This document shows positions 32,824-55,821 of a DNA stretch of 64,000 nt, one piece after another. The stretch comes from a virus. Its lineage: Duplodnaviria; Caudoviricetes. The position numbers and the translations under genes are program-made. The notes beneath the pieces are model-generated. The model worked only from the letters and a program-made list of their open reading frames with translations, ran no database searches and was not told the origin of the DNA. The stretch lies in the IMG/VR virus record IMGVR_UViG_3300017716_001697, positions 224,001 through 288,000 of that record, one strand, 5' to 3'. The first letter of the stretch is position 1. The number at the start of each line of letters is the position of its first letter.

Positions 32824-33156
32824 ATGAAGGTTACACGCAAAGATATAGCGCGAGCATTCACAGATGCGAAGAAGTATCTCTCTGATACACACATTGACAG
32901 CCATGGCCAGTTTGAATACATCTGCTGGGCATTGAATCACACTACTTGCAATCACTTTGTGATAAGGGAGTGCCGCAAGATCATTAATGCTCGCCTCGAG
33001 CGCCACACAACATTCAGGGACTGGATGGAAGCTGAGTATCCAGAATTGCGTGATGCAATTGATGCAGACTACCGCTACAACAAGGGCCGCAAGATGCAGA
33101 AGGCTCGCAGTGCTTGGTTGGACTCGATGATTAAAGAGCACAGCAAAAAGGTGTAG
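32824..33156 (+). CDS. hypothetical protein, family with 6839 and 32517
   Basis: YICWAL...RKIINARL...F.DWM...KMQKAR.AWLDSMIKE. Confidence 0.85.
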   Translation: MKVTRKDIARAFTDAKKYLSDTHIDSHGQFEYICWALNHTTCNHFVIRECRKIINARLERHTTFRDWMEAEYPELRDAIDADYRYNKGRKMQKARSAWLDSMIKEHSKKV

Positions 33157-33208
33157 ACCTGGAATCACTATTGCGCTATAATACATATATCGCAACAAGG
33201 AGTACATC

Positions 33209-33379
33209 ATGGCAAGTAAGGAACAGTTCTGTACAGACGTAGGCAAGCGTGCTGAAATCTACGGCGTGGAAGATGGCAGCGACCTGTGTTTCAATCTCAT
33301 CGAGATGGGTGTTATCGTTCCGACTGACGGCATTGAAGAAGCTGCTCGCATTGTTGCACAGCACGTTCTGCAAGCATAA
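33209..33379 (+). CDS. small acidic protein
   Basis: Hand-translated; follows the cassette RBS. Confidence 0.75.
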   Translation: MASKEQFCTDVGKRAEIYGVEDGSDLCFNLIEMGVIVPTDGIEEAARIVAQHVLQA

Positions 33380-33388
33380 GGAGTCATC

Positions 33389-33610
33389 ATGAGCCGCAAG
33401 TACACAAACAAACTGTTGGAAATGGTTGACGAAGGATCCTATGATCCTAAGGAGATCATGACTATGGCTCTCAACGCTTTAAGCGAAGACGATGTCGAAG
33501 AGATGTGTCGTGCAAACGATCTTGTTGATGGAATGGGGCTCGACGATGAAGATGATGATGGTCAACCCGATGAAGCTCAGGAATGGCATGACTTTGATCC
33601 CGACTGTTAA
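33389..33610 (+). CDS. highly acidic small protein
   Basis: AAGGAG RBS; ends DDEDDDGQPDEAQEWHDFDPDC. Confidence 0.85.
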   Translation: MSRKYTNKLLEMVDEGSYDPKEIMTMALNALSEDDVEEMCRANDLVDGMGLDDEDDDGQPDEAQEWHDFDPDC

Positions 33611-33875
33611 ATAATGCTCGCTATCACGTTAATGATAGTTTGAGCTTAGTAGGGTCTAGTTCAGGTGTTGACGTTAGGTTCTGTATCTGACACGTTGATG
33701 CTGAGGTGGTTGGCCCTACCGGACACGCATGTTAAATCACCCCACTCCTAACTAGATTGCGGCTAGTAATACAGATGACATGCAATGCTGATAGGCAAGC
33801 TATCATAAATTTCTATTAATGGTTGCTCAATGATAGCTATGTGTTATAATACATACATCGCAACAAGGAGTACAT

Positions 33876-34067
33876 ATGCAAGTTCCACAAGTAGGTGACA
33901 AGTGCTGTGCAGACCCAGAGTTTGATGGCACATTCCTATACGGTGTGATCACTAAGATCGTAGACGGACTTGCGTGGTCTAACTTGCAGAAGGGTTTCTT
34001 CGGGGAGTTCTGTGGCGACATTCCTACACACAAACGTGATGGTGTGTGGGTTTATGATTCCTTCTAA
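33876..34067 (+). CDS. hypothetical protein
   Basis: Cassette RBS. Confidence 0.8.
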   Translation: MQVPQVGDKCCADPEFDGTFLYGVITKIVDGLAWSNLQKGFFGEFCGDIPTHKRDGVWVYDSF

Positions 34068-34074
34068 GGTGCAT

Positions 34075-34254
34075 ATGAACAACGAAGCAGTAGCAAAGAT
34101 CGTTAAGGGTATCAATCAATGGATGGCCCATGTGCGAGCTGCTGGTGACATCGCTGACATTGAGGATGCCCTCGGCGAGTACAGCGACACGATGCAACGT
34201 GCCGGTGTCACACGTAACGAGGTGTATGCGGCGTTTCGGAAACAATTTGAATAA
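34075..34254 (+). CDS. hypothetical protein
   Basis: ATG 34075 after AAGG. Confidence 0.7.
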   Translation: MNNEAVAKIVKGINQWMAHVRAAGDIADIEDALGEYSDTMQRAGVTRNEVYAAFRKQFE

Positions 34255-34312
34255 TGAGTTGACTTGGTGCCATCCTAGTGTTATAATAAACACATAGCAA
34301 CAAAGGATCATC

Positions 34313-34771
34313 ATGAAGTACTCCAAGCACATACACGTATTGCAACTGTTGTCGACAATTCCGCCTAACCCGGTTCGTGCGTATGTGAACAAACACAACC
34401 AGCCGTACCCAGCAGAATGGCTTCAACAATGCAATGATGCGTGGGATCACTTGTTCACGTACATCCATGCGAACTGGGCACGTCCTGACACAGCGATGGC
34501 TGACGGTGACATAGTCTGTAGCTACCCCACAATTACTTCTGTTCAGGGCAAGGTCGACGTGTTTGATTGTCGAGTTATGCTTGCAATGGGGCGAGACGAT
34601 CTCGAGGCTAAACTAGCGTCATTGCCTCCCTACTTCAGCGAGACGATCTTTCCGGTAGCGGTTGCTCGCTATATGCTAGGTGGCATTCATCTGAACCTTC
34701 CGATTCAGCACCGCGAGCTTACAACCTTCCACGAGTTTCACAATCGTTACGGGCGCATCATCTTGTCGTAA
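34313..34771 (+). CDS. hypothetical protein
   Basis: Cassette RBS. Confidence 0.8.
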   Translation: MKYSKHIHVLQLLSTIPPNPVRAYVNKHNQPYPAEWLQQCNDAWDHLFTYIHANWARPDTAMADGDIVCSYPTITSVQGKVDVFDCRVMLAMGRDDLEAKLASLPPYFSETIFPVAVARYMLGGIHLNLPIQHRELTTFHEFHNRYGRIILS

Positions 34772-34808
34772 TAATTTGTGCTATAATAAGCACAACAAGG
34801 AGCAATGC

Positions 34809-35243
34809 ATGCGTACAGTAAACGGTAATTGGAGTGCAGTGGTTAAAGAACTGCGCAGGATCGTTGTAAAGCACACTCAGTTCGAGATGCAAGAGCATGC
34901 TCACGCTTTCAGTGATGTGATGTTTACTACAGACACATTCCACCCATTTGACTGTGAAGGTGAGCGTTTGATGGAGCGTGTACTGCGTGGTATGCCAGTG
35001 CGCTGCGACTATCGCAACTGTGAGTCACTTGCTACGTGGAAGGACTTCAAGGAACAGCTCATTGATGCAGTGTACATATGGTGTGTAGAGACAGAGTATC
35101 TCATTACTGATCACTACAACGATTCGTGGAACTTCGCACCCGGTTATGTGCGCCCAGCATCCATTAAGCATGATGATTGGTTGTGGGTAGCTAACAAGGT
35201 ATTCGCTCGTGTACATCGGGCAGCATTGAAAGGTATGAAATGA
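34809..35243 (+). CDS. hypothetical protein
   Basis: Cassette RBS; start corrected to 34809. Confidence 0.8.
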   Translation: MRTVNGNWSAVVKELRRIVVKHTQFEMQEHAHAFSDVMFTTDTFHPFDCEGERLMERVLRGMPVRCDYRNCESLATWKDFKEQLIDAVYIWCVETEYLITDHYNDSWNFAPGYVRPASIKHDDWLWVANKVFARVHRAALKGMK

Positions 35244-35422
35244 ACAAGTATATGTGTTTCTACAACGGCAAGACTTGGGAAGTTACTGCCGACTCACTGT
35301 ATGCTGCAAAGCTGGCAGCAATTAAGATCATTTGTGCACCTCGCAAGAAAGAGCACATGATCTCAGTGGTCCTATACGAGAAGGAAGGCACGCCAGTAGT
35401 AGTTTCAACAGCATCACTTTAA
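35240..35422 (+). CDS. hypothetical phage protein
   Basis: Y.CFYNGK..EV.A.SLY.AK. Confidence 0.8.
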   Translation: MNKYMCFYNGKTWEVTADSLYAAKLAAIKIICAPRKKEHMISVVLYEKEGTPVVVSTASL

Positions 35423-35479
35423 TTGTTGACTTGGCTTCAGTTCTGCCATATAATACATACAAGTAACAAGGAGTAGCAG

Positions 35480-35803
35480 ATGACACAAGTAATTTTGCAC
35501 ATGTTGAAGCCAGAACTGATGATTAACATGTACACAGGCGGCATGGATAATCAGCTCGAGCAAGCCCGCAAGATGATTGCTGAAGGTGGCTACGAGGCAG
35601 TTGTTGTAGACGGCATCGGGGAAGGCAAAACACACACAGTGGAAATTATTGCCGACGAGATGTTCGATCTCACTAACAATCCAAATCGGCAGGATGAGCG
35701 CGAAGAAGCTTACGGACGTGGTCGGTCTCTTAGCGTAGGGGACATTGTTGAAGCCAACGGCGCGAAACTGTTGTGCTGCTCCTTTGGTTGGAAGGCGGTC
35801 TAG
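35480..35803 (+). CDS. YodL-like domain protein (tentative)
   Basis: RSLSVGDIV......L.C.SFGW. Confidence 0.65.
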   Translation: MTQVILHMLKPELMINMYTGGMDNQLEQARKMIAEGGYEAVVVDGIGEGKTHTVEIIADEMFDLTNNPNRQDEREEAYGRGRSLSVGDIVEANGAKLLCCSFGWKAV

Positions 35804-35804
35804 T

Positions 35805-36146
35805 ATGCAAGTCACTACATCCACTATCACACGTATTGCAGACGCAGACATCCCCGCAGGGCGTTGCCGTTGCCCGGTTTGTGATGGTACGATGGAAGTA
35901 GGTGCTAATGAGTACCAGAAGAAGTACAAGAATGTGATTGCAGGCTACAACCTCGCTAACGATACTGTGCGATGCAACAATTGTGGAGGCCAATACATGT
36001 TTGGCTCGCCTAAGGGGCATGTTAAGCCTAATGCTGCAGGAGATGGCTGCTGGCACGACTATGCTGGCACAAACGCAGGGCGCTGCCGCACTGACTACAA
36101 GTGTACGCATTGTGGCGACACATATCAGATCGATTCTGGCGATTAA
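35805..36146 (+). CDS. Zn-ribbon protein
   Basis: CPVC, CNNC, C.H, C...Y.C.HC. Confidence 0.8.
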   Translation: MQVTTSTITRIADADIPAGRCRCPVCDGTMEVGANEYQKKYKNVIAGYNLANDTVRCNNCGGQYMFGSPKGHVKPNAAGDGCWHDYAGTNAGRCRTDYKCTHCGDTYQIDSGD

Positions 36147-36204
36147 AGGTAGACAAGGAACCTTTTCCTTGTTATAATCAATACATCGCAACAAGGAGTA
36201 CATT

Positions 36205-36585
36205 ATGGAACTACAGTTTAACCCTAACGCTATCGCAAGCAAAGCAATTGAGAATCATTTCAATGCTTGTATATCCTCAGGCATTGACGTATGCATTACG
36301 GCAGCAGATGACAACAGTGTCACACTTGCACCATGGCGGTTCGGCAATCCACTGCCAAAGGAGTTCACACTCCGGCAGCGCGTAGCAGGCATGGGTGCAT
36401 GTGTTGGTGGATACCTGAAGATTGAGCACACAGTGAAACACGACTTGAAAGGCAAGAAGTGCTTTATCACGCTCGGTGGCACTATGAAGCAACCCACAAT
36501 CAAGATACGGTTGGATAGTGCTGCGAACCGTGGACCTAGTAAGGATGTTGCGTTGATTAGTTTCGACCCAAAGTACACCCCTTAA
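36205..36585 (+). CDS. hypothetical protein
   Basis: Cassette RBS. Confidence 0.8.
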   Translation: MELQFNPNAIASKAIENHFNACISSGIDVCITAADDNSVTLAPWRFGNPLPKEFTLRQRVAGMGACVGGYLKIEHTVKHDLKGKKCFITLGGTMKQPTIKIRLDSAANRGPSKDVALISFDPKYTP

Positions 36586-36646
36586 TAAAGGTTGGCAGGG
36601 AGGTAACTCCCTGTTATAATAAACACTTAGCAACAAGGAACACATC

Positions 36647-36877: not shown

Positions 36878-36915
36878 CTGTGTTATAATAAACACTTAGC
36901 AACAAGGAGTAGGTT

Positions 36916-37465: not shown

Positions 37466-38605
37466 ATGTCCCATATCCAAGTCAGCATTACAAAAGGCGT
37501 TTATCGTGGCAAAGTTATCAGCGGCGTGTATCCGTTGGTTAAGGGATTTGTTGATGGTGCCCGTGGCGGCTTTGTTACAATCAAGAACATCAATCACGAC
37601 GCAGGCACTCCAATGGTGCAACGTGTGCAAGTTGAAGCAGACGCATTCAAGCTGCTGGATGCCACAGGTGCAGACTTGCCAGCGCACATCGTTGTGCCGG
37701 GCGCAGTTGCAGCAGTAGATGCTCCAGAGACGGACTTCGAAGCAGTGTTCATGGAGTCTGAAACAGAAGACGAAGCTATGGAGCGTATTGCTTCTACGTT
37801 CGACATGCTGGATAAGATCACGGATGCGGCATCCAGCGGCATTGTGCGTGGACTCGTTGTTAGCGGCCCACCCGGCATTGGCAAAAGCTTTGGAGTTGAA
37901 AAGCAACTCGCAGCAGCTAACATGTTCCGCACGCTGGAAGGCAAGGATCCACTGTTCGAAGTTGTAAGCGGCGGCGTTAGCAGCATCGGGCTGTATCAGA
38001 AGCTGTACCACAACCGCTCTGCAAAGCAGGTGCTGGTGTTCGATGACTGCGACGGCGTGTTGTTTGAAGAAGAATGCCTTAACTTGCTGAAAGCTGCATT
38101 GAACAGCGGAGACAAGCGTCGCATTTGCTGGAACAAGGAATCGCGTGTATTGGCTGTCGAAGACATCCCTGAAGCGTTCGACTTCGAAGGCAGCATCTTG
38201 TTCTTGTCCAACATTGACTTTGATCGCAGCATTGCTAAGGGCTCGCGTATCGCTGCACACTTGTCAGCTATCATGTCACGCTGCCATTACTTGGACTTGG
38301 AGATTGGTAGCCTGCGTGACAAGCTGTTGCGTATCAAGCAGATCGTGCGCGATGGTATGTTGACACAGTTCGACTTCAGTGCACAGCAGGAAGCAGACAT
38401 TGTGGCTTTTACTACAGACAATGCAGAGTATCTGCGGGAAGTGTCACTGCGTATGGTTAAGAAGATCGCAGACTTCATGAAAGCGGACCCTGTGGGCTGG
38501 TATGAAATGGCGGAAGCTACGTGTTTGACTAAGGAAGCTAAGTTCAAGCGTCTGTTGCAACGTAAGCAGCAGGAAGCCGAGCGTCGCGGGATTGCACTAG
38601 CATAA
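37466..38605 (+). CDS. AAA+ ATPase with extra N-terminal domain
   Basis: Walker A GPPGIGKS, Walker B VLVFDDCD, sensor-1 LFLSN, Arg finger IMSRC. Confidence 0.9.
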   Translation: MSHIQVSITKGVYRGKVISGVYPLVKGFVDGARGGFVTIKNINHDAGTPMVQRVQVEADAFKLLDATGADLPAHIVVPGAVAAVDAPETDFEAVFMESETEDEAMERIASTFDMLDKITDAASSGIVRGLVVSGPPGIGKSFGVEKQLAAANMFRTLEGKDPLFEVVSGGVSSIGLYQKLYHNRSAKQVLVFDDCDGVLFEEECLNLLKAALNSGDKRRICWNKESRVLAVEDIPEAFDFEGSILFLSNIDFDRSIAKGSRIAAHLSAIMSRCHYLDLEIGSLRDKLLRIKQIVRDGMLTQFDFSAQQEADIVAFTTDNAEYLREVSLRMVKKIADFMKADPVGWYEMAEATCLTKEAKFKRLLQRKQQEAERRGIALA

Positions 38606-38620
38606 CGCATGCATGTACTA

Positions 38621-38650
38621 AATAATAGGCCCTTCGGGGCCTATTATTTT
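38621..38650 (+). terminator. strong, possibly bidirectional, intrinsic terminator
   Basis: AATAATAGGCCC-TTCG-GGGCCTATTATT-TT. Confidence 0.85.
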
Positions 38651-38711
38651 GATTGACACGGTAGATTGACAGTGTTATAATCTAAATGTTAGTAACAAAC
38701 CAGGAGTAATC

Positions 38712-40082
38712 ATGAAAGTTAGTCTTTTATCGGTAGTCCTTGTAGCATCTAGTATGCTACTTGGATGTGGTGGCGCTATGGAAGCCACTATCGTTGCAGC
38801 ACCGGAAGCTGTGACTCTTGCAGAAGCAGAAGAAGTGGGCGCGGAGCCATTTGGTAGTGTTGAAAGTACAGTGCTCTATATGACGCCTGCACAAGTTCGC
38901 ACACGATATGGATTCGACAGTTTGCCCAATACACCCGCTGCACAAGGCAGTGGCCAGCTGATTGCAATCATCAGCGCCTACAATAACCCGGACTTGGCTG
39001 CAAATTTGCAGGCATTCTCGGCCAAATACAACCTACCACAATGCACCACAGTGCCTACAGTATATACCCAGTTGCCTACAGGCTACACGGGGACGACTGT
39101 ATCGCATCCACCTACAGGCCGCGGGTGTACATTGCAAGTCATTAACGTGGATAGTTTTGGTCGGGTGACTAAGATGGTTCCACAAGGTGGGCCGGCAACA
39201 GCACCATGGATGATGGAATCCACTATGGACATTGAGTGGGCGCACGCAATTGCACCACAAGCAAGCATATTGGTAATTCAAGCACCCAGCATCTTTGTTG
39301 GTGCACTCGGTAATGCGGCAAAGTATGCAAGTAGCGTGGGAGCCGACGTTGTTTCAATGTCGTGGGGTGTCAATGAGACTTCACAACAATGTACACGCAA
39401 GCCCGGACAACCTACTGTGAAGTATGTTTCTACATGCGACGATGCGGCAACAGCAGCAAAATATTGGCAAACCGTGGACACTATGTTCGCTGGTTCGGCA
39501 ACATTTGTAGCGGCATCCGGCGACCGTGCAGTTCTACAGTGGCCATCCATTAGCCCTAAGGTAATGGCAGTCGGCGGCACGAATGCATATGGTCCAGCTG
39601 GCAAAGACACTGCATGGCCATTGTCAGGAGGCGGAGTTTCTAAATCGTTTCCTGCACCTAGTTGGCAAGCAAACCACATGAAGGCTGCAAACAGGAATGT
39701 ACCAGACGTATCACTTGTTGCTGGAACACCGGTGGCAGTCTACATCAAGCCAAATGCTAAGACTGGATTTGACGACTCAACTTGCGTAGCAGCGAAGGGT
39801 GAAAGTGGCTGTGGATGGTATGGTGGTGGTGGTACTAGTGCAGCGGCACCTATGTGGGCAGGCATTGTGGCAATCACTAATGCTATGCGTATTGCGGGCA
39901 GCATGAAGAGTACAGAGTTCGTTTCATCGTTATACACCAACGTCGCTAGTGTGCGCGGCACCTATGCATCTTCATTAGATGATGTTATAGTTGGAGCACA
40001 TGCTAATGAAGGATATGACATTTCGACAGGATTGGGTGTACCTAATGCCAACAACCTAATCAACTACATGGCATCACGATAG
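38712..40082 (+). CDS. lipoprotein S53 (sedolisin/kumamolisin-like) serine protease
   Basis: Lipobox LLG-C; ESTMDIEWAHAIAP (Glu/Asp), VVSMSWG, ASGD oxyanion Asp, GGTSAAAP nucleophile, GYD..TGLG.P Ca site. Confidence 0.88.
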   Translation: MKVSLLSVVLVASSMLLGCGGAMEATIVAAPEAVTLAEAEEVGAEPFGSVESTVLYMTPAQVRTRYGFDSLPNTPAAQGSGQLIAIISAYNNPDLAANLQAFSAKYNLPQCTTVPTVYTQLPTGYTGTTVSHPPTGRGCTLQVINVDSFGRVTKMVPQGGPATAPWMMESTMDIEWAHAIAPQASILVIQAPSIFVGALGNAAKYASSVGADVVSMSWGVNETSQQCTRKPGQPTVKYVSTCDDAATAAKYWQTVDTMFAGSATFVAASGDRAVLQWPSISPKVMAVGGTNAYGPAGKDTAWPLSGGGVSKSFPAPSWQANHMKAANRNVPDVSLVAGTPVAVYIKPNAKTGFDDSTCVAAKGESGCGWYGGGGTSAAAPMWAGIVAITNAMRIAGSMKSTEFVSSLYTNVASVRGTYASSLDDVIVGAHANEGYDISTGLGVPNANNLINYMASR

Positions 40083-40185: not shown

Positions 40186-40431
40186 ATGTCATTCACAACC
40201 CTTACCTCTACCCAAAAGTCCTTCGTCGAGCAACATCTGCGAGGCACAGGTCGGGCATTGTCCGAAGCTCAAGCCCGCGAAACCTACGGCATCATGAATC
40301 TACGTGCTGTCGTTAGTTCAATGCGTGACTCGGGCTTAGTAGTACGCAAGCAAAAAAACACAGCTGGCCGTACTGCATATGCTATTAGCCGTAGAGACGT
40401 TGCAGGTGTTCAAAGCAAGATCTTTGCTTAA
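40186..40431 (+). CDS. winged helix-turn-helix protein
   Basis: HL...G..LS..QA...YGI.NL.A.VS.MR..G..V; own promoter and terminator. Confidence 0.75.
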   Translation: MSFTTLTSTQKSFVEQHLRGTGRALSEAQARETYGIMNLRAVVSSMRDSGLVVRKQKNTAGRTAYAISRRDVAGVQSKIFA

Positions 40432-40451
40432 CATCCAAAACGGGTAATAAG

Positions 40452-40477
40452 AAGCCACCTTAGGGTGGTTTTCTTTT
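40452..40477 (+). terminator. intrinsic terminator
   Basis: AAGCCACC-TTAG-GGTGGTTTT-CTTTT. Confidence 0.75.
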
Positions 40478-40611
40478 GGCTAAAATATCTGCAGAAATCT
40501 GTAGACAAGCAACTCTTCCTGCGTTATAATCAATACATGGACAGCAAGCAGTAACAAACAAGCAAGCTGCACATAAGTTAGTTTACTTTATTATCAACTT
40601 AGGAGTCTATT

Positions 40612-41061
40612 ATGACACAAGGTATCCGTGCTTTCACTATCGCTACTTTCAACGCAACCCTGCCACGTTTGGCTGAACTGGGCAACATCGCATTCCGTCG
40701 GGAAGTGATGGACCAGGCGATCATGGGTTTTGGTATCAGCGTTGCATCCGCTGCAACCCATTACAACCACGCACTGAAGACCGTGCGTGAAGCAAGCCCA
40801 GAAGCTGTGAAGGGCCTGGGTCGCCCCGAAGACAAGAAGGGCGGACGCAAGCCCATCCACTTGGTTGACGTGGTGAAGGCCAAGTCCGGCGATGTGGTTG
40901 CAACTGGTCTGAGCAAGGCTGCTGCTGAAGCAATGATTGCTGAAGCTGCTGCCAAGGGCAAGGTCAAGCTGGCTATCAAGGTAGTGGTTGACATGCCAGT
41001 CGCAGCTACCACTGAAGTGGCTACCACTGAAGCTGCACCTGCAGAAGCTGTTACTGCGTAA
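40612..41061 (+). CDS. Ala/Lys-rich putative DNA-binding protein, AATHYN-GLGR family
   Basis: FRREVM...GISVASAATHYNHALK...GLGRPEDKKGGRKP; strong codon bias. Confidence 0.88.
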   Translation: MTQGIRAFTIATFNATLPRLAELGNIAFRREVMDQAIMGFGISVASAATHYNHALKTVREASPEAVKGLGRPEDKKGGRKPIHLVDVVKAKSGDVVATGLSKAAAEAMIAEAAAKGKVKLAIKVVVDMPVAATTEVATTEAAPAEAVTA

Positions 41062-42112: not shown

Positions 42113-42505
42113 ATGCCCGCAAAACGTGATTTGTCAGACGTGTTAGCACAGTACATGGATGAGAACAAGATGCATTGTATGGAAGGCGTGCGGGGTGTTA
42201 ACGCCTTCGAGAAATTAGCACGCGCATTAGGCTACGACGGCAGCTGGAGCGCCAGCACATTGCACGCATTCCTGGAAGACAATTCTGGATGCATTGAAGC
42301 AATGATTGAATGGATTGGAAGCCGAAACAACCCGGATTGGAAGGCAGCTCTCGAATCCCAGATCTCGGATCCCGCCGCAGAGGAGCCCGAGAACGATGAC
42401 ACCTCGGAAGGGCCTGTGACTGACATCGACGGTGAACTCGAGGATGGGGAGATCGTTCTCGAGAATTTCGCAGGGAACACCCTGACTTTCAACAAGGCAC
42501 GATAA
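42113..42505 (+). CDS. hypothetical protein with acidic C-terminus
   Basis: Cassette RBS. Confidence 0.85.
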   Translation: MPAKRDLSDVLAQYMDENKMHCMEGVRGVNAFEKLARALGYDGSWSASTLHAFLEDNSGCIEAMIEWIGSRNNPDWKAALESQISDPAAEEPENDDTSEGPVTDIDGELEDGEIVLENFAGNTLTFNKAR

Positions 42506-42877
42506 CAGTAGACAACTGGTTCCAACTGCGTTATAATAGCACATCGCAACAAGGAGTACACAATGATTAAGTCTCAAAGTGATTCGGGCAAGTTTCGCAC
42601 AGCACTAAAGCGTGCAGGCTTTAATAATGATGGCCAAATCTTCAGCGACCCGCGCAAGAATACGCGCCGGTTGAAGATGTGGTTTGCTTCAGTTGTATTC
42701 GAATCCTCACCAAAGCAGCAACAGGTGCTGGAAAAATCCCTGAAGGAACTGTTCGGCGATCGCTACCTCACTGGGTACTTTATCCAACGCAGGTACTGGA
42801 CAGGCAACGGCAAGGCACTTTGCATCCGCCTGGCAAAGAAATAACAGTAGACAACTGGTTCCAACTGCGTTATAATT
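42503..42877 (+). repeat. identical cassette heads flanking one gene
   Basis: TAACAGTAGACAACTGGTTCCAACTGCGTTATAAT at about 42503 and 42842. Confidence 0.9.
42563..42844 (+). CDS. basic hypothetical protein
   Basis: Cassette RBS. Confidence 0.8.
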   Translation: MIKSQSDSGKFRTALKRAGFNNDGQIFSDPRKNTRRLKMWFASVVFESSPKQQQVLEKSLKELFGDRYLTGYFIQRRYWTGNGKALCIRLAKK

Positions 42878-43018
42878 AACGCTTAACAACAAGGAGTAGA
42901 TGATGAGTCAACGTAAGAACAAGCGCCGGATCTGTAACGCTGTCTGGGACATCAAGGTTGTCCCACAGTGGTTCAAGACAGGCTGCGGCCTCTAATCCCA
43001 CAACTACAGGAGTATAGC

Positions 43019-43287: not shown

Positions 43288-43584
43288 ATGCAAGCAGGCA
43301 ATACATTGCAGGTTCGTGCAGCAATCAATGCAGCATTCGACGAACTGAAGCACCACAAGCGGCGCACATGGACTGACCAGGTTAAGTGGGGTCGATTTGA
43401 TGGACCCTCGCGTGTTGTCACATACCAGACAGTCTATGCATCCGAGATTGCTGCTGTAGCCCAAAAGAATTTGCAGCTGGCCGGATTCGACAATGAAGTC
43501 CGTGTTACTGATACTGATGCTTGCTTGCCAGGGCGGTGCGGGCCCGGTGGGCCATATATTCGAGTCAATACTTTTATAGCATAA
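43288..43584 (+). CDS. hypothetical protein
   Basis: Cassette. Confidence 0.8.
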   Translation: MQAGNTLQVRAAINAAFDELKHHKRRTWTDQVKWGRFDGPSRVVTYQTVYASEIAAVAQKNLQLAGFDNEVRVTDTDACLPGRCGPGGPYIRVNTFIA

Positions 43585-45119: not shown

Positions 45120-45184
45120 TAGTAGACAGCGGAACCGGTTTGCGTTATAATCAATACATAGCAACAAACAGTAGAAAGCAGCAA

Positions 45185-46021
45185 ATGACTACACCGCAGC
45201 AACAAGTTTTGGATAAGTGCAAAGCAGTACTAGCAACTGCAAGTGCATTGTACAGCATGGATCTGTCCCATGTGTCAATCCGCTTCGATCTTAAAGGTCG
45301 TGCAGCAGGTATGGCATGCCAGCGTGGTGCACAAATGTACATGCGCTTCAACCGCGACATGCTTACACGTGAGGCATTCGACCACGTAATCAACAACACT
45401 GTGCCGCATGAAATTGCACACATTGTCTGCTTCAAGAACCCCTCGCTGGGTCGCGGACACGACAGCGGCTGGGAGCGTGTTTGTGTGAGGCTTGGCGGCA
45501 GTGGTGCTACACGGCACAAAGAAGATGTGGTGTACGGTAAGGGTACCACATACGAATACACAACCACAACGGGTCACAAGGTTCGGTTGTCTGAGCAGCG
45601 TCACAGGGGAATCCAAAGCGGCAATGCTATCCGTTGGAAACACGGTATGGGTATCACCAACCAGACATGTGCATACAGCATCGTCGGCATTCAAGGTCGC
45701 ACATTGGCAACACCAATTGTTAAGAAGGAAGCCAACCACCCTGCAGTAATCGAAGCAGCGGTCCGTGCACCAGTAGCACCCATTGTGCAGCAAGCACGCA
45801 CCAGTTTCACAATCGGCACAGCACCCGTGACACCCAAGCCAACGTTTGCTGCAGGTGTAAGCAAAGCGGCTGTGGCACGTGCGATCATGCTTGCAGGACG
45901 TACACAAGGGCAGACACATGACGCAATGATTGCAGCGATCATGCTTGCAACAGGGCATGACAGGCAGTTGGCACGTGCTACGTTTAAAGCCAACGCTGCC
46001 AAAGTGGGTATCACACTGTAA
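45185..46021 (+). CDS. SprT-like Zn metalloprotease with C-terminal helical domain
   Basis: L.GR.AG.A, TVPHEIAHIV (HExxH), GH..GW..VC..LG, Y.Y. Confidence 0.85.
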   Translation: MTTPQQQVLDKCKAVLATASALYSMDLSHVSIRFDLKGRAAGMACQRGAQMYMRFNRDMLTREAFDHVINNTVPHEIAHIVCFKNPSLGRGHDSGWERVCVRLGGSGATRHKEDVVYGKGTTYEYTTTTGHKVRLSEQRHRGIQSGNAIRWKHGMGITNQTCAYSIVGIQGRTLATPIVKKEANHPAVIEAAVRAPVAPIVQQARTSFTIGTAPVTPKPTFAAGVSKAAVARAIMLAGRTQGQTHDAMIAAIMLATGHDRQLARATFKANAAKVGITL

Positions 46022-46096
46022 ACAAGAATGCAAAATAAAGGGGCCATGTGCCCCTTTCCTGTGTTATAATCAATACATCGCAACAAGGAGTATAGC

Positions 46097-46313: not shown

Positions 46314-46517
46314 ATGTACATACTACGATTTCAATCACTTGTCAATAGCGGCCGTGGCTTCACATTCGATTGTGATAAGGATGGAGTAGTAGATGTAGAC
46401 AGCATGTCCGAGCAACTGTATAACAGCTATGTGGCAGTATGGCGTGCCGTGGGCATCGATTATGCTATGCCAATTATTGAACAGACTGGTTGTCCTTTGG
46501 AAGTAAATCGGGTATAA
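46314..46517 (+). CDS. hypothetical protein
   Basis: L.F.SL...GRG..F.CD..G.V.V. Confidence 0.75.
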   Translation: MYILRFQSLVNSGRGFTFDCDKDGVVDVDSMSEQLYNSYVAVWRAVGIDYAMPIIEQTGCPLEVNRV

Positions 46518-46523
46518 TACATT

Positions 46524-46772
46524 ATGATTACACATACATTACACAAAGACATTGTATATTCTGACAACAGTCGCATCCCTGTTGTAGTTGAGCCATGCCT
46601 TGTTGGCTGCGAAGTACGCGCCATGGGGCAGGAGTATCGCGTGGCGTGGGACGATATCCCAGACATGGAGAAACTGGCAACAATCTTCGAAGACAGCACA
46701 GTGCGAGTCTTCAAGGTTATCGTAGAACTGCTGGGTCATGCTTATCGCAACAAAGAGTTGTACGTCGAATGA
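46524..46772 (+). CDS. hypothetical protein
   Basis: Promoter immediately upstream (near-leaderless). Confidence 0.65.
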   Translation: MITHTLHKDIVYSDNSRIPVVVEPCLVGCEVRAMGQEYRVAWDDIPDMEKLATIFEDSTVRVFKVIVELLGHAYRNKELYVE

Positions 46773-47094: not shown

Positions 47095-47274
47095 ATGGAT
47101 TATTACGCAATCGTCTTATCGCCTGAACAGAAAGAACTCGTAGTGCGAGCAGTTGAAGTCTTCTCGCAGTTAACAGTCGGGCAGACTTTTGATCAACGCG
47201 AGGACGCCCGTAAGCTGGCACCGTTGCTACACAAGATGCATCAGCACGGCACTAACGATTTAAGCAAGCAATGA
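47095..47274 (+). CDS. hypothetical protein
   Basis: Promoter TTGACT..TATACT. Confidence 0.65.
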   Translation: MDYYAIVLSPEQKELVVRAVEVFSQLTVGQTFDQREDARKLAPLLHKMHQHGTNDLSKQ

Positions 47275-47794: not shown

Positions 47795-48217
47795 TTATTT
47801 CCAGTACAGTGTTGCCTTTTTTGCGGCTTTTGCACGAGCAACCAGCGCAGTTGCATCTTCAAAGCTCATGTTCTCTGCGACAACAGTGCCGTCTGCTTTC
47901 TTGCACACGGTAAACACTGTCTGCTCCGGCACAACAACTTCGGCAGCAGCAACAGCAGCTACCTTGGGCTTGCGTCCGCCCTTCTTGTCTTCTGCACGAC
48001 CCAAGCCTTCCAACTGTGCAGCAAGCACGGGGTCCTTCTTGGCTTCCTTGAACGCATGGTTGTAATGCGTTGCGGCTGATGCAAGGCTAATGTCAAATTC
48101 AGTCATTGCGTAGCCGATAACTTCTGCACGGAAGCGTGTGTTGCCAAGCTCTGCACGCTTTGGCATGAGAGTGACGAACTGGTGATTGACGTTAACGCGG
48201 ATGCCTTTGTCTGCCAT
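47795..48217 (-). CDS. putative DNA-binding protein, AATHYN-GLGR family
   Basis: FRAEVI...DISLASAATHYNHAFK...GLGRAEDKKGGRKP; TAAGGAG RBS; tandem minus-strand sigma70 promoters near 48255-48370. Confidence 0.88.
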   Translation of the reverse strand: MADKGIRVNVNHQFVTLMPKRAELGNTRFRAEVIGYAMTEFDISLASAATHYNHAFKEAKKDPVLAAQLEGLGRAEDKKGGRKPKVAAVAAAEVVVPEQTVFTVCKKADGTVVAENMSFEDATALVARAKAAKKATLYWK

Positions 48218-48523
48218 GATAAACTCCTTAGTGTGTTGCGGTAAGTGTATTGTACTGCGAAACAGTTCCAATGTCAACAACTTTTGCAACTTTATTTTGC
48301 TTTGTTGTTGATGTTGTAGTGTTCTGCATGTATTGATTATATGACGGAATTGTGCTCCAGTCAACAACTATTTCAACTGTTACATCTTGTTACATCTCCG
48401 ACCCTCTGTACAGTCTCGGACCTGTTAATCAGTGGCCTTGATCATGCCTTGCGAGGCTTAAAATAAAGGTAGACACAGGAACCGTTCTTCGTTATAATTA
48501 ATACATCGCAACAAGGAACTAAT

Positions 48524-49025: not shown

Positions 49026-49235
49026 ATGTCACAACCGACAACTATTGCACAATTCGCAGAAGCTTGCAAGACGCTAACAAGTGATGAAGTGTTTGAATTC
49101 TTCGAATTCGAAATCAGTGATGCACTTCGCGATGAGATCTATAGCATGTCTCGCACATCTAGTCACGAACCATGTCGTGATGCACTCGAACAAATCGGTA
49201 AGCAGTTCAACGTTCAAAGTTTAATTGATTATTGA
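49026..49235 (+). CDS. acidic small protein, tandem paralogue of 49299
   Basis: FA.ACK.LTSDE....FEF.IS..LRD.IY. Confidence 0.85.
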   Translation: MSQPTTIAQFAEACKTLTSDEVFEFFEFEISDALRDEIYSMSRTSSHEPCRDALEQIGKQFNVQSLIDY

Positions 49236-49298
49236 AAATAATTGTTGACACAGTGTTTCGTTGTCGTTATAATAAACACATAGCAACAAAGGAACATC

Positions 49299-49499
49299 AT
49301 GCAAACTGTACAAGATTTCGCACTAGCTTGCAAGCATCTGACAAGCGATGAGATCTACGACTTGTTCGAGTTTGATATCTCGCAGGAGTTGCGTGACACA
49401 ATCTACGCAGAAGCCGAGATTGACAGTGCAGAACCTGTGCGTGACGCATTCAACAAGATTGGCGTGCGCTACAGTGTGCAAACGCTTGCAGATTATTGA
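49299..49499 (+). CDS. acidic small protein, tandem paralogue of 49026
   Basis: Same motif and duplicated cassette. Confidence 0.85.
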   Translation: MQTVQDFALACKHLTSDEIYDLFEFDISQELRDTIYAEAEIDSAEPVRDAFNKIGVRYSVQTLADY

Positions 49500-49884: not shown

Positions 49885-50242
49885 ACATAGCAAATTAACA
49901 AGGACACTTGTTTCTAATTCTACAGCTAGTTCCGCATCGTTTTGGGGCTGTTCAAATAATGAAAACTATGCAAGCAGGGTACTGCCGATAGTGTAGCACG
50001 TTACTGGTGCTGATGCTATCGAGAGTGCGCTGGAGTAGGTGAAGGCCTACTGTAACATCGGCCATAGAAGAGACCGTGTTACATTGACAAATCGTGGTCG
50101 CCAGCAAACTCTCCATGTAAGTGCTGTGCGCTTTGTGGGGCATGCGGATAGTGGAGAAAGCGAGTAAGGGCTGCATTAACTTTTGTCTGCCTGAGGACTA
50201 CGCTAAAGCCACCTAGCAAAAAGATCGGTGCCCCACTTTTTT
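49885..50242 (+). ncRNA. candidate early-promoter-driven structured ncRNA (about 350 nt)
   Basis: Cassette promoter (TACAAT 49875) with no ORF; nested helices; GTGGGGCA(50135-42)/TGCCCCAC(50229-36) then T6. Confidence 0.5.
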
Positions 50243-50254
50243 ATTGAGGATAAG

Positions 50255-50473
50255 ATGGCTACGTATTCTTGCAAATGCTGTAAAGAACCCTTTGAAGCAC
50301 GTGAGGCTGATCGCAAACGCGGCTGGGCAAAGTTCTGCAGCAAGTCCTGCAAAGCAAAGAAACAGGAAGCACGTACCGGGCAGTATAAGGCATACCTCGA
50401 ACGGAAAGATACCGACTTTGACGTCGATGCCTACCACGCCGAGGATCCTGGATGGGATGCCCACAAGTTTTAG
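50255..50473 (+). CDS. Zn-finger protein
   Basis: CKCC..PF.AR.AD.KRGW.KFCSKSCKA. Confidence 0.85.
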   Translation: MATYSCKCCKEPFEAREADRKRGWAKFCSKSCKAKKQEARTGQYKAYLERKDTDFDVDAYHAEDPGWDAHKF

Positions 50474-50528
50474 TTGACATCAGCTTCCATCTGCGCTATA
50501 ATAAACACATAGCAACAAAGGATACAGA

Positions 50529-50831
50529 ATGAATTGGTTACCAGCCAAAGGCGAATTGTTTTATGTGCGTCACAAGCCACGTAAGATGCCTGTACGTGAT
50601 GTCGATGGCGAAGTGGTTGCAGCCGTGGACCACCAGGATGGCTCGTACCGCAACGATATCTTCCGCCTCAAGGGCAGCGATGACACAATGATTGTAGCAT
50701 ACTTCGCGTATGTGAGTGGAAGCACGTACGGTATGGAGAAGCCTCAGATGTTCCGACGCGATGAGTGGACAATCAGCCCTGTGGGACCCGAGGTGGCAGC
50801 AGCACTCAATCTGAAAGTGTCGGTTGACTGA
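50529..50831 (+). CDS. hypothetical protein
   Basis: Cassette. Confidence 0.8.
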   Translation: MNWLPAKGELFYVRHKPRKMPVRDVDGEVVAAVDHQDGSYRNDIFRLKGSDDTMIVAYFAYVSGSTYGMEKPQMFRRDEWTISPVGPEVAAALNLKVSVD

Positions 50832-50858
50832 TTAACCCAACTACGCTATAATAAGCAT

Positions 50859-51074
50859 ATGACAAACAAACAAAAACGCATTGTAGCATTCATTTTAATG
50901 ATTGTTACGTTGATTTGCATAGCAATCCTTAGCCTCCCGTTCTACCAGACCTTAATGATGTGTTTCGGTGGCTGGCAAGTAGGGCGATGGGCTGGCGACT
51001 GGGGTCGTGCAGCGTGGCCTGATCCTGTGCCTCAGCCTACACCGTCCGACGATGACAACACGTTCGAGGGGTAG
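50859..51074 (+). CDS. membrane protein
   Basis: Hydrophobic; promoter immediately upstream. Confidence 0.7.
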   Translation: MTNKQKRIVAFILMIVTLICIAILSLPFYQTLMMCFGGWQVGRWAGDWGRAAWPDPVPQPTPSDDDNTFEG

Positions 51075-51076
51075 TC

Positions 51077-51316
51077 ATGTTTGGTGCACAACTGCGATGC
51101 CCTACGTGCAATCAGTACAAACCTGATCGTTGCACCTGCAACAAAGACCCCTCGCTGAAGGGTGTGAAGGGCGGTAATTGCAATCGTACGGCTTGCCAGA
51201 AGCCTGGAGCACTTTGGTATAACAGTGGATCCTGGGCCTACTACTGCCGTGCATGTGCTCGTGATATCAACAAGTGCTGCCCCAAGGATGAACCGCTCTG
51301 CACAAATACTGAATAA
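51077..51316 (+). CDS. Cys-rich Zn-binding protein
   Basis: CPTC, KG..GG.CNRTACQ.PGA.WYN......YC..CA..IN. Confidence 0.85.
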   Translation: MFGAQLRCPTCNQYKPDRCTCNKDPSLKGVKGGNCNRTACQKPGALWYNSGSWAYYCRACARDINKCCPKDEPLCTNTE

Positions 51317-52244: not shown

Positions 52245-52266
52245 AAAGGGGCCCACATGCCCCTTT
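52245..52266 (+). terminator. probable terminator hairpin
   Basis: AAAGGGGC-CCACAT-GCCCCTTT. Confidence 0.55.
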
Positions 52267-52338
52267 CGTCACGGCAAATATCTGTTGACACTTGGTTCCT
52301 TTGGTGCTATAATTAACACATAGCAAACAGGAGTACAC

Positions 52339-52629
52339 ATGCAAGTAGATGCAATTCTAGCAGGTTTGGCAAAGGCTCGTCAACGCTTAATGTGCATCGA
52401 TGGTGCATACACAGCAGATCAAGCGCAGCACCGCCTTAGCATTATCTCCGTCATGCGGGACTACGCACTCGAGGAAGACGGTACAGGCTTCGCTAGCTTC
52501 TGTCAACGCACCCTCGCAGGAACTGATGGCGACATCATGGTCGACCTGCTAGAGGAGTTGTACGAAGAATTGGGCAAGGACCCGGAAGTTTGTATGTGGG
52601 ATGAATTTGAAATGGAATTCCTTCAATAA
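52339..52629 (+). CDS. acidic hypothetical protein
   Basis: Cassette RBS. Confidence 0.8.
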   Translation: MQVDAILAGLAKARQRLMCIDGAYTADQAQHRLSIISVMRDYALEEDGTGFASFCQRTLAGTDGDIMVDLLEELYEELGKDPEVCMWDEFEMEFLQ

Positions 52630-52682
52630 CAGTTGACAACTGCATCCAACAGTGCTATAATCATTGTAACACAAAGGCACAC

Positions 52683-52862
52683 ATGCAAACCACAAAGATC
52701 AAGAAGAAGGACCAAGAAGGAATGATTAGCTCCTTCTGGGCAATGCTCCAGGAGTTGGAGAATCAGGCAGAGAACACGCTCGACAAGCACTTCGTGGAAA
52801 AATACTACGAGCAGTGGAATCGAATCACAGGCGACAACAAGGTTGCACGTTGGAATCGATAA
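52683..52862 (+). CDS. hypothetical protein
   Basis: Hand-translated after promoter. Confidence 0.65.
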   Translation: MQTTKIKKKDQEGMISSFWAMLQELENQAENTLDKHFVEKYYEQWNRITGDNKVARWNR

Positions 52863-52904
52863 AGGCAGTTTAACAGATATTAGCGGCTAAGGCCGCTTTT
52901 ATTT

Positions 52905-53330
52905 TGGCCATATAGTTCTCGCATAAGAGCGCGATCCTTCTTATAATCGTTGCCGAGAACTATAGCCTTAGGTGTCGCGATTCGCCGCCTAAAGAATCGC
53001 CTTAACCACAGATCCTCGGAGTTAGGGCACGCACCTAGCTGATAGCGTGCAACCTTGCCGAGGCTAATTTCATGCCACAGCCGTAGGTGTATTACACAGT
53101 GTTTATGAGCTAATTTTAGCAGGTTTAGGCAAAGGTTGCGACGATTCTTTAAGACAGATTCATTAAAGTTCTCGCAACTACTATACCGACGGCTAAGGTT
53201 GCGTGCAATAACTCCGAGACTATGTCGACAAAGGTGATGACAGATTACTCAGCGATCATACAAGCCTCGGCCAGGCGGATCAAGGCCACTGATGAGTAAG
53301 TCCACGAACCGCTGAGTGTAACAAGATGTA
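52905..53330. other. non-coding palindrome-rich element (structured RNA or DNA signal)
   Basis: 11-bp, 9-bp, 8-bp and 8-bp perfect inverted repeats; no ORF. Confidence 0.55.
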
Positions 53331-53413
53331 ACAGTCTAAATATCGCTTGCCCAATGCTTCATCCTGCCATATAATTACTACATAGCAACACAATAGTAAC
53401 GCAAAGGTACACT

Positions 53414-54025
53414 ATGAAGCACATCACACAAGCAGAAGCTAACACAGCCTGCGCACTCCACGCTAACAACAACACACTGACTGTTGCACAATTGCAACAA
53501 CTGTTGGGCAACGTAAGCGTCACGTTTGCCACAATTGAATACGTTACAGCCGTGCAAACAGCGGCAGCGCACAAGGGCCAGAACATCAAGAAGGTGACGA
53601 AGGCCAATGTTATCCTGTGCAGCAACATCGCAGCGCATACAAGCGTGTACGCTAACATGGTGAAGAAGACTGCCGCTACCATTGCTGACAATGATCAAGC
53701 TGCTGTAGCTGCATTTACACCCCAAGCTAACTACTTTGAGCACACTGACTGCCACAGTATTGTGCAGCACAAGGTGCATACTGACAAGTTTTATTTGTAT
53801 GTAATTTACAACGCCGCATCCAGTATCTACTTGCACAATGGTACCCCTGTTACGAAAGTGGACATTATTCCATTCCTTACACCAAGTGGTGCACGTGACT
53901 TGATGGCTGGTACTGATGTCGTGGAAAACAAGACACATGGTATCAAGCACCGTGTCGCAGTACGCACGATTGCACTCAGCAACATCGTAAGCATCAAGGC
54001 TCGCAAGCAATTTGTAACAGTGTGA
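53414..54025 (+). CDS. hypothetical protein, 203 aa
   Basis: Cassette; long ORF. Confidence 0.85.
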   Translation: MKHITQAEANTACALHANNNTLTVAQLQQLLGNVSVTFATIEYVTAVQTAAAHKGQNIKKVTKANVILCSNIAAHTSVYANMVKKTAATIADNDQAAVAAFTPQANYFEHTDCHSIVQHKVHTDKFYLYVIYNAASSIYLHNGTPVTKVDIIPFLTPSGARDLMAGTDVVENKTHGIKHRVAVRTIALSNIVSIKARKQFVTV

Positions 54026-54233
54026 AATAGTTGTAGACAGGGTGGAAACATCCTGCTATAATTAACACATAGCAAACAGGAGCACTACATGGACCCCAAA
54101 GCAAAGTATACAGTAGAACAAGTTCAAGCAATGATGATGTTGGAAATGCATCGCATCACTTGCACATATGTCAACCTCATGGGACGCCTTGGCGTCAAGC
54201 AGCTGACATTGCATCGCTTCTGAGGAGTACAGC

Positions 54234-54428
54234 ATGATAAACGGCAGACTCAAAACATTGGAGAACCTGACTGAGCTCTTGTACTCTGAGCTCAAGGCGT
54301 GTGCTGATGATCCTGCCGTGACTGAGCAGACCTTTGCACTGCTCAAGGCGGCGGCAATTGTTACCATCGACTTGAAGCGCAAGATTGAACTGGCCCGCGG
54401 TTGGAACACACTAGGAGCAGCAAAATGA
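54234..54428 (+). CDS. hypothetical protein
   Basis: GAGGAG RBS. Confidence 0.75.
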   Translation: MINGRLKTLENLTELLYSELKACADDPAVTEQTFALLKAAAIVTIDLKRKIELARGWNTLGAAK

Positions 54429-54595
54429 AGTCGTGGAAGAGGGAGTGGGCAATAAGCCAGGTAGTGAATAACTGGCGCATCCGCAAGCGGCTTCCTCGTA
54501 TCACTGCCCTTGCTGTCAAGCGTGGATTGATTGCACTCAAAGGTGATGGCAGCTATCGCAATGCTGAGCGTGGCGACAACGATTACCGAAATTAG
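54425..54595 (+). CDS. basic hypothetical protein
   Basis: TAGGAGCAGCAAAATGAAG start, repeated at 54606. Confidence 0.7.
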   Translation: MKSWKREWAISQVVNNWRIRKRLPRITALAVKRGLIALKGDGSYRNAERGDNDYRN

Positions 54596-54605
54596 GAGCA
54601 GCAAA

Positions 54606-54824
54606 ATGAAGACATGGAAGAATTGGTTTGCATGGTATCCAGTGGCCTTCGGGCCTCACATCAAGTGGCTGGTTACGATACAGCGATACTACAACTCCGA
54701 GGAGAAGTCTTGGTACTATCGGAGGCTACCTTCGGAGATATGTGCTGTGCCTCGCGTGCGCAAAGAACAAGACATCGACTGGGTGGCGCGACTAAAAATA
54801 CTTCTTGCCCGCCCCTCCAAGTAG
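54606..54824 (+). CDS. hypothetical protein (W..WFAWYPV motif)
   Basis: TAGGAG RBS. Confidence 0.75.
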   Translation: MKTWKNWFAWYPVAFGPHIKWLVTIQRYYNSEEKSWYYRRLPSEICAVPRVRKEQDIDWVARLKILLARPSK

Positions 54825-54985
54825 TGCTATAATAAACACATAGCAACAAGGAATACATCATGTTAGGCCACTACAAACAGCTTCTTGCACACGTTGCACG
54901 TTCACAACGCCAGCAATTCAAGCCGCTTACACAGACGCAGTTCATTAAGATTGCAGTCAAGATTGTAACAGCTTAGGAGCACAAC

Positions 54986-55237
54986 ATGACACAGACAGTA
55001 GCTGAATGGACACGCGATTGGTACGAGCGCCGCTTCCTGGGCCGTATCCCAGTGTTCATCCGCCTGCGTGTTAGATATGGTTGGTACACCTATCGCAAGT
55101 CCGAGGGGCATCCAATCACATTGCGTCGAGCATTCTTCTCGCAGCCACCACGATTCGGATCATACGAAGAGCACGAGGTAGGTTGTCCAGACTGGGCATT
55201 GCGTGACTACAAACTGGTTGCAATACAATCCAAGTAG
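54986..55237 (+). CDS. hypothetical protein
   Basis: TAGGAG RBS. Confidence 0.75.
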   Translation: MTQTVAEWTRDWYERRFLGRIPVFIRLRVRYGWYTYRKSEGHPITLRRAFFSQPPRFGSYEEHEVGCPDWALRDYKLVAIQSK

Positions 55238-55273
55238 TGCTATAATAGCTGCATAGCAACGCAAAGGTACACT

Positions 55274-55639
55274 ATGACAACAGCCACATACACATTCGAC
55301 AACGACATTGCAGGCGACTTGCACAAGGATGCATACGGCTTCCGCCCACACTCCAGCTGGTGGGCTGCGTGGGCCATTATGTCGGATGCTGAGAAGCAGC
55401 AGGAGTGGGACCAGCTTGTCGAATCAATGAAGACACGTGAAGCATCTCGTATCGAATGTGAGCAGCAAGCGATAGTCCGCTTCGAGACCCTAGTGACTAA
55501 GACTGTCACAGCAGGAGCAGCGAGCCGTGCAGACGCTATCAAATGGTTGATGCAGGGTGAAGAGGTGAATGGTGACACCAACTACTTCGAGTACCTAATG
55601 GGTATCCCCTACGGTCACGTTGTTACAACTACGTGTTGA
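55274..55639 (+). CDS. hypothetical phage protein (DLHKDAYGFRP motif)
   Basis: Cassette; motif recalled from T4-superfamily early genes. Confidence 0.85.
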   Translation: MTTATYTFDNDIAGDLHKDAYGFRPHSSWWAAWAIMSDAEKQQEWDQLVESMKTREASRIECEQQAIVRFETLVTKTVTAGAASRADAIKWLMQGEEVNGDTNYFEYLMGIPYGHVVTTTC

Positions 55640-55821
55640 CAGCAGCATCCAGCTATGCTATACTAACAGCATAGCAACACAAAACATATCATGTACTACG
55701 CAAACATCGCAGCAGCTATCGGATTTGTCGTACTCGCAATCATGGAGTATCGCAAAGGATCCCGCGGCGTTGCAGCGTTTAACGCAGCCTTTGCATTAGC
55801 TAACATCGCAGCTACCACACC

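Follow-up and report, generated by a model that had tools for sequence, protein, structure and literature searches.

Why is a run of small phage genes divided, almost gene by gene, by copies of one promoter-like sequence? The question is raised by the 64,000-nt stretch analyzed here (the window), which is positions 224,001-288,000 of the virus record IMGVR_UViG_3300017716_001697, a genome of 364,576 bp with direct terminal repeats. The genome codes for a T4-type major capsid protein (Gp23 family) and a T4-type portal (Portal_T4), and the phage is an uncultured giant phage of the T4 superfamily. It is only distant kin of the Straboviridae; its nearest isolates are PA5oct-like, with 43% amino acid (aa) identity for one gene, and the sequence is found in metagenomes from freshwater, sediment and wastewater. 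The locus is probably a cassette array of the promoter-early stem-loop (PeSL) type, lying in a hyperplastic region of this genome.

Forty-three putative promoter-leader units on one strand

The leader pattern ACATMGCAACAA, searched with 1 mismatch permitted, occurred 23 times in the window, always on the + strand, against a chance expectation of 1.2, and a repeat finder grouped together 20-25 copies of a 48-60-nt unit. A position weight matrix built from the aligned copies (A-tract, -35 box, 17-nt spacer, -10 box and three more bases) was run on the whole 364.6-kb genome, where it found 84 sites on the + strand and 5 on the - strand, compared with 1-6 per strand in shuffled sequence. Forty-one of the + strand sites lie within genome positions 250-280 kb, which correspond to 26-56 kb of the window. 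Hand curation added five units missed by the matrix (16-nt spacer, -10-only or leaderless type), and after curation there were 43 same-strand units between 33,153 and 55,690, spaced at a median of 428 nt and a mean of 535 nt. These units would drive 58 + strand open reading frames (ORFs) with a median length of 72 aa. In 39 of the 58, the -10 box lies 10-60 nt before the start codon, so that the ORF has a unit of its own, and the interval from one unit to the next holds one gene in 27 of 43 cases and two genes in 14.

33141..55690, + strand: array of 43 units and 58 small ORFs (matrix plus curation)
-10 box starts in the array, + strand: 33177, 33845, 34282, 34782, 35449, 36173, 36615, 36884, 37427, 38676, 40150, 40525, 41791, 42082, 42532, 42871, 43252, 43613, 43967, 44334, 44789, 45146, 46065, 46513, 47083, 48493, 48724, 48995, 49268, 49531, 49875, 50497, 50847, 51345, 51552, 51949, 52308, 52656, 53370, 54057, 54828, 55241, 55659
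4541..21900, + strand: further units at wider spacing, with -10 boxes at 4577, 6808, 8789, 10623, 12866, 13390, 16750, 17343, 18090 and 21871

A preliminary description of this DNA had reported about 40 cassettes of promoter, leader and ribosome-binding site, mostly with a single gene each, and the count given above bears this out. The three pairs of exact copies that it named were also recovered, with 36 nt identical at 42502/42841, 28 nt at 36612/36881 and 19 nt at 54816/55229. It had further placed about a dozen additional units in 4.5-27 kb; about 10-11 were found, in 4.5-22 kb. When 8 kb of the array was searched against the phage collection at the DNA level, in near and distant modes, nothing matched, and a search with one 69-nt unit returned chance-level matches only.

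Architecture of the unit

The consensus begins with AAATA, three variable bases, GT(T/A)GACA, a 17-nt spacer often ending in TGCG or GTG, and TATAAT. It continues with (A/T)(A/C)A(C/T)AC, AT(A/C)GCAAC(A)A, (A)GGA(G), 5-7 variable bases and the ATG. Many units match TTGACA-N17-TATAAT at 12 of 12 positions, and in most the ATG lies about 31 nt from the start of the -10 box and is preceded by AAGGA(G). In 16 units the stop codon of the upstream gene ends 26-33 nt before the -10 box and is itself the TAA or TAG of an AAATAA or AAATAG motif; the unit therefore occupies the entire intergenic gap of about 60 nt. The spacers between the two promoter boxes are mostly unrelated from unit to unit (mean identity 5.7 of 17), while adjacent units have longer exact runs in common than non-adjacent ones (permutation p = 0.0004). 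A significant hairpin (z < -2) was found in 12-13 of the 43 units, compared with 10% of control segments, and its arms span the end of the -35 box to the base preceding the -10 box, which is mostly spacer. At four places (38620-38652, 40451-40472, 46037-46057 and about 52264-52283) a GC-rich, terminator-like hairpin lies just upstream of the -35 box or replaces it, as in the following unit.

46037..46070, + strand: unit with a GC-rich terminator-like hairpin (46037-46057) at the -35 position and an extended -10 box

We infer that transcription would start 7 nt past the -10 box, at the A in the CAT that the units conserve. A leader predicted on this basis measures about 20 nt and contains 47% A and 13% T; it is less structured than other gene starts of the window (p = 0.001) and also than random segments. 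Five relatives from IMG/VR, with 59-78% aa identity, carry the same type of unit in lineage-specific variants, such as CATAAT as the -10 box in two of them (L009 and L010), and the design is thus conserved across the clade.

This conservation bears on whether positions +1 to +12 of the leader, ACAT(A/C)GCAACAA, might act, besides the promoter role of the unit, as a control site, either an operator or an RNA element, through which a phage factor shuts off or processes every early message at once. T4 RegA and RegB are the proposed analogues of such a factor. The leader is conserved across the clade, has a similar form in phage RB49, and is more conserved than a ribosome site would need. Against this, an A-rich, unstructured leader suffices to explain the conservation, and no candidate factor emerged; we consider such a function unlikely.

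Correspondence to the PeSLs of T4-type phages

PeSLs have been described in the T4-type phages RB49/phi1, T4/PST and KVP40/nt-1 (Arbiol et al. 2010, PMC2839356; Comeau et al. 2014, PMC4122927). They consist of a stop codon in an AT-rich stretch, sigma-70-like -35 and -10 boxes, a stem-loop, a Shine-Dalgarno sequence and an ATG; the boxes are near-perfect in RB49/phi1, and the stem-loop most often lies between them (PMC2839356; PMC4122927). Each genome has 51-52 of them, clustered ahead of ORFans in its hyperplastic regions, and chimeric PeSLs mark indels, with mini-circles detectable by inverse PCR (PMC2839356; PMC4122927). In RB49, mini-circles and promoter and terminator activity have been demonstrated experimentally (PMC2839356; PMC4122927); in the array of the window the promoter activity is predicted from sequence.

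The matrix built from the window recovers RB49's own PeSLs at 114-124 kb of that genome, and the two sets of elements both have GTTGTTGACA, a spacer hairpin and a TATAAT-ACACNCAT start region. The likeness extends to the near-perfect TTGACA-N17-TATAAT, the upstream stop codon in an A/T-rich stretch, the Shine-Dalgarno sequence and the ATG. It extends also to the setting, a hyperplastic region upstream of ORFans in a phage with T4-type capsid and portal, and to the single-ORF indels or replacements between relatives that leave chimeric units behind. The window units differ from PeSLs in that their leader has a consensus of its own. At the sequence level every PeSL feature is present save the stem-loop, of which a clear example occurs in only about 30% of the units. 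The preliminary description was thus correct in drawing the parallel to RB49, as this design is found both in the PeSL definition of the literature and in the sequences of RB49. The density, which it had called striking, has a precedent in RB49, with 8 PeSLs in about 5 kb. As a single block, the array of the window is nevertheless longer and denser, with 43 units in 22.5 kb; the density by the same matrix is 1.74 per kb here and 1.05 per kb in HPR3 of RB49.

The array therefore belongs to the already described PeSL system and is no new kind of system, though it is unusually long and uninterrupted, and lies in an uncultured giant T4-related phage. The PeSL mechanism, described in T4-like coliphages and vibriophages in culture, would thereby also apply to giant T4-related phages of a very large environmental clade, in which one backbone protein alone has more than 6,000 database relatives.

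Two other kinds of phage element resemble the array in part. A moron of a lambdoid phage is a gene that has been inserted between two others along with a promoter and terminator of its own, and like the cassettes of the window it is an autonomous single-gene expression unit added between existing ones. Morons are scattered, and to our knowledge no common repeated promoter unit serves them as a crossover site. The host-takeover module of SPO1, and T5, have clusters of early promoters, with many strong host-type promoters before small early genes; we know of no description of these clusters as conserved promoter-leader units that mark cassette exchange.

Loss and gain of single cassettes between relatives

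A closer relative, about 80-87% identical and here called R1, consists of three pieces (L028, L014 and L017) merged from one 135-kb ENA scaffold, which was retrieved by exact-protein look-ups. It is 77-95% identical to the window in DNA and collinear with it over 12.9-63 kb, and it aligns to only about 64% of the region. One event concerns a cassette flanked by the 36-nt repeat.

42502..42562, + strand: unit P42532, with 36 exact nt (stop codon, -35 box, spacer and -10 box) in common with the next unit
42563..42844, + strand: single-gene cassette, 93 aa, no family; absent from R1 and from the X7 contig
42841..42899, + strand: unit P42871, the downstream copy of the 36-nt repeat

At this site R1 has one chimeric unit, in which the upstream flank, -35 box and spacer of P42532 are joined to the leader of P42871. 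The X7 contig, 15.5 kb long and from another study, shows the same clean skip of 339 nt, with its joint at 42501->42841 and 36 letters that fit both sides. Homologues of the 93-aa cassette, with 61-76% aa identity, occur in three further contigs: at the same site with two different flanking promoters (L029), behind a different upstream gene (L030), and surrounded by unrelated genes (L031). The arrangements in L029, in the window, and in R1 and X7 therefore represent three states, namely distinct promoters, homogenized promoters, and deletion with a chimeric promoter. In this way metagenome contigs suffice to catch cassettes in intermediate states.

Further cassettes of the window are missing from R1.

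34313..34771, + strand: 152-aa cassette ORF, absent from R1, with the joint in the -10/start region TATAATAA(A/G)CACA shared by units 34282 and 34782
35480..35803, + strand: cassette ORF, 107 aa, absent from R1
43288..43584, + strand: 98-aa cassette ORF, absent from R1, with the joint at the -35 hexamer common to units 43252 and 43613
52339..52629, + strand: 96-aa cassette ORF, absent from R1, which has one mosaic promoter combining units 52308 and 52656

In R1 the promoter of the missing ORF 35480-35803 lies directly before the orthologue of ORF 35805-36146, which it would drive. Chimeric or mosaic promoters were found at four single-gene indels between the window and R1.

A repeated unit could also arise if a gene and its promoter were duplicated in tandem and the copies then diverged, and one pair of genes has this appearance.

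49026..49499, + strand: the sole paralogous pair, ORFs 49026-49235 and 49299-49499, with 53% aa identity

The units of this pair are nearly identical, with 31 exact nt in common, and where the window has two genes R1 has one. Among about 65 ORFs this is the only pair with detectable relatedness, and the units are far more alike than their genes. With only one paralogous pair, gene duplication fails to explain the repeats, and we rejected it as their origin, an explanation we hold to be very improbable.

Synteny breaks and the contribution of the units

Over the whole array, R1 and the window are separated by 19 synteny breaks. A break end was scored as lying in a unit when it fell between -36 and +37 of a -10 box; this was so for 25 of 37 ends, while units cover 14% of the region (binomial p = 1.6e-13). 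When noncoding ends only were considered, 24 of 30 were in units, versus 46% expected (p = 1.6e-4). About 23 units are half-shared, in that R1 and the window have just one of the two adjoining genes, upstream or downstream, in common, and at these units similarity flips sharply just before or after the -35 box, at the -10 box, or at the ATG. Contigs from two further samples, X3 and X4, have other cassette combinations around 49.5-51.1 kb. Protein-level synteny across the relatives shows a collinear backbone (the P-loop, HTH_39, 149-aa and SprT-like genes and ORFs 46524-46772 and 47095-47274) around which small ORFs appear, vanish and swap order.

The preliminary description had regarded the units as sites at which single cassettes are gained, lost and reordered, and the concentration of break ends in the units, with chimeric promoters at the joints, agrees with this. 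The relatives do differ by the presence, absence, replacement and reordering of single cassettes. These comparisons support the reading of the units as recombination cassettes.

Several X7 joints (43234->55241, 48475->54057 and 51327->54828) mean only that a promoter copy of the relative fits another copy of the window better, and they were not counted as rearrangements. Apparent indels between L019 and L020 proved to be scaffold gaps, runs of N that start inside a unit, and not real events. At L019:13800-13900 the run of N begins right after the -10 box of a unit, and at L019:18270-18370 a run of N lies in a tandem repeat. Repeats of this kind can break short-read assemblies and mimic indels.

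The preliminary description had used the term integron-like. An integron-like platform would have a dedicated recombinase that recognizes the repeat, and the array does resemble an integron in being a same-strand series of single-gene cassettes with a repeated element between them; the spacer hairpins of some units could even be structured sites. Nevertheless, each cassette has its own promoter instead of one that is shared, and the crossovers are homology-based and scattered over the -35 box, -10 box, leader and ATG instead of falling at one site. A search for a tyrosine recombinase (PF00589) gave no match in the complete 364.6-kb genome, and the positive controls matched. With a promoter in each cassette, no integrase and no attC/attI logic, the comparison is only an analogy, and we rejected a site-specific platform as extremely unlikely. 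The array had also been called recombinase-free, which is right only for site-specific recombinases, since the genome encodes a RecA/UvsX-like protein. The titration of host RNA polymerase by the repeats, which the same description had inferred, is likewise unsupported here.

In the PeSL-type array that we propose, the primary function of the units would be strong early transcription by the unmodified host RNA polymerase together with efficient translation; promoter activity and early timing are both deduced from the sequence. Each unit would drive one or two small genes, probably for host takeover or accessory roles. The conserved boxes would in addition supply identity patches of 13-36 nt for general homologous recombination; the phage has the RecA/UvsX-like gene already named. 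Recombination at these patches could delete, insert, replace and reorder cassettes and would leave behind a working, often chimeric, promoter. Most simply, the recombination role would be a by-product of having many near-identical promoters.

A number of observations weigh against this interpretation. A clear stem-loop is found in only about 30% of the units, and intrinsic terminators are not enriched overall (26 versus 17.7 +/- 4.4 expected). The association of break ends with units is open to two biases, as BLAST extension through any promoter copy shifts break ends towards unit edges, and selection that keeps breaks out of coding sequence pushes the ends in the same direction. Break density is 0.85 per kb in the flanks and 0.84 per kb in the array; the flanks used as control (12.9-24.7 kb and 55.7-63.9 kb) have few or no units and are themselves hyperplastic DNA, in which paralogous gene families appear to supply the homology. 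Finally, at least two deletions are not unit-mediated. The subtilase gene was lost from R1 and X7 by an illegitimate event that left a -35 half-promoter and the last ~24 nt of the coding sequence, and the deletion of 50242-51175 is likewise illegitimate, running from a hairpin into an ORF. The equally plastic flanks and these two deletions mean that the units are not required for plasticity.

Such observations could be taken further, to mean that the units are promoters only, one strong promoter being needed by each small early gene, that genes turn over by unrelated mechanisms, and that the association with breaks reflects selection for intact genes and alignment bias. The plasticity of the unit-poor flanks and the illegitimate deletions would fit, as would the mostly unrelated spacers and the fact that the conserved positions are the functional ones. 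This account does not explain why chimeric promoters change parent within the unit, or why the 36-nt exact repeat includes non-functional spacer and contains the joint in two independent relatives. Units are enriched for break ends even among noncoding ends, and neighboring units are more similar than distant ones. We regard promoters without any part in recombination as a rather improbable explanation. Taken with its limits, the comparative evidence indicates that the units are crossover sites within the array and not the sole source of plasticity.

At the other extreme, recombinogenicity itself may be selected, with the array as a dedicated platform for homology-based cassette exchange in a very large environmental clade of giant phages. 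Gene conversion would then homogenize neighboring units, as in the 36-nt identity at 42502/42841 and the greater likeness of neighbors, and the spacer hairpins might be entry points for a structure-specific nuclease; in the relative L014 a gene of the Endonuclease VII family adjoins the array. Such a system might possibly be combined with a clade-wide leader operator for early shut-off. We think it doubtful that selection has acted in this way.

Gene content and backbone genes

Most ORFs of the array have no family match; the exceptions are a subtilase-family protein, a SprT-like protein, a P-loop protein (phrog_1250) and a small HTH_39 protein.

37466..38605, + strand: P-loop protein gene, 379 aa, phrog_1250; conserved backbone, collinear in all relatives, used as the query to retrieve relatives
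38712..40082, + strand: subtilase-family gene, 456 aa, with its own unit (-10 box at 38676) and a terminator-like hairpin upstream at about 38620-38652
40186-40431, + strand: HTH_39 protein gene; backbone, collinear in all relatives
40612-41061, + strand: 149-aa protein gene; backbone, collinear in all relatives
45140-46021, + strand: SprT-like protein gene; backbone, collinear in all relatives

The 379-aa P-loop protein has homologues with 43% identity in PA5oct-like Pseudomonas jumbo phages, weaker homologues in 1,310 phage records, mostly T4-like, and more than 6,000 metagenomic relatives. A search for related loci with the subtilase gene found no relative. In L015 (547-2793) and L019 (5489-7804) a larger Peptidase_S8 gene, of 748-771 aa, lies upstream of the P-loop gene. 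The window subtilase, downstream of the P-loop gene, had no counterpart in these two contigs by tblastn, and they are probably different genes.

The array offers a ready set of about 60 candidate host-takeover genes, and it supplies a well-defined promoter-leader module that is predicted to be strong.

The array is otherwise one-directional, but 47795-48329 holds two - strand ORFs, of 140 and 33 aa. The 140-aa ORF matches, by size and position, a minus-strand ORF of 138-142 aa in the contigs of relatives, and promoter-like sites are present on the - strand at 48364 and 48277.

Variant units and neighboring repeat families

A leaderless-type promoter is found at 46490-46530, where TATAAT and 5 nt precede the ATG of ORF 46524-46772. 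It is kept in R1 with a good -35 box, while in the window ORF 46314-46517 occupies the place of that box.

In the stretch 40496-40611, the unit with its -10 box at 40525 is 100% identical in R1. Between this unit and ORF 40612 lies a leader of about 75 nt (CATGGACAGCA...), and a similar start is seen in L010 and L013. This leader could be a regulatory 5' untranslated region or a small RNA; it had no match in Rfam, which also returned no known RNA family over 30-58 kb of the window.

In the relative L013, at 17660-17700, the -35 hexamer TTGACA lies in the loop of a terminator hairpin (AAAGGGG...CCCCTTTTTT), which makes the hairpin an extremely compact composite of terminator and promoter.

Repeated small genes lie on either side of the array. 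At 25900-30450 there is a second set of repeated small-gene coding blocks (families D17, D19 and D20), and the 3-kb segment 27720-30764, with 12 ORFs, is only 0.8 kb in R1. At 58250-63600 at least 11 small paralogous genes stand in tandem, about 230 nt apart and free of promoter units. The block that codes for their C-terminal part is conserved (repeat families D4/D5), and their stop and start codons overlap. The joints of R1 indels in this segment overlap by 34-70 nt, which suggests recombination between the paralogues.

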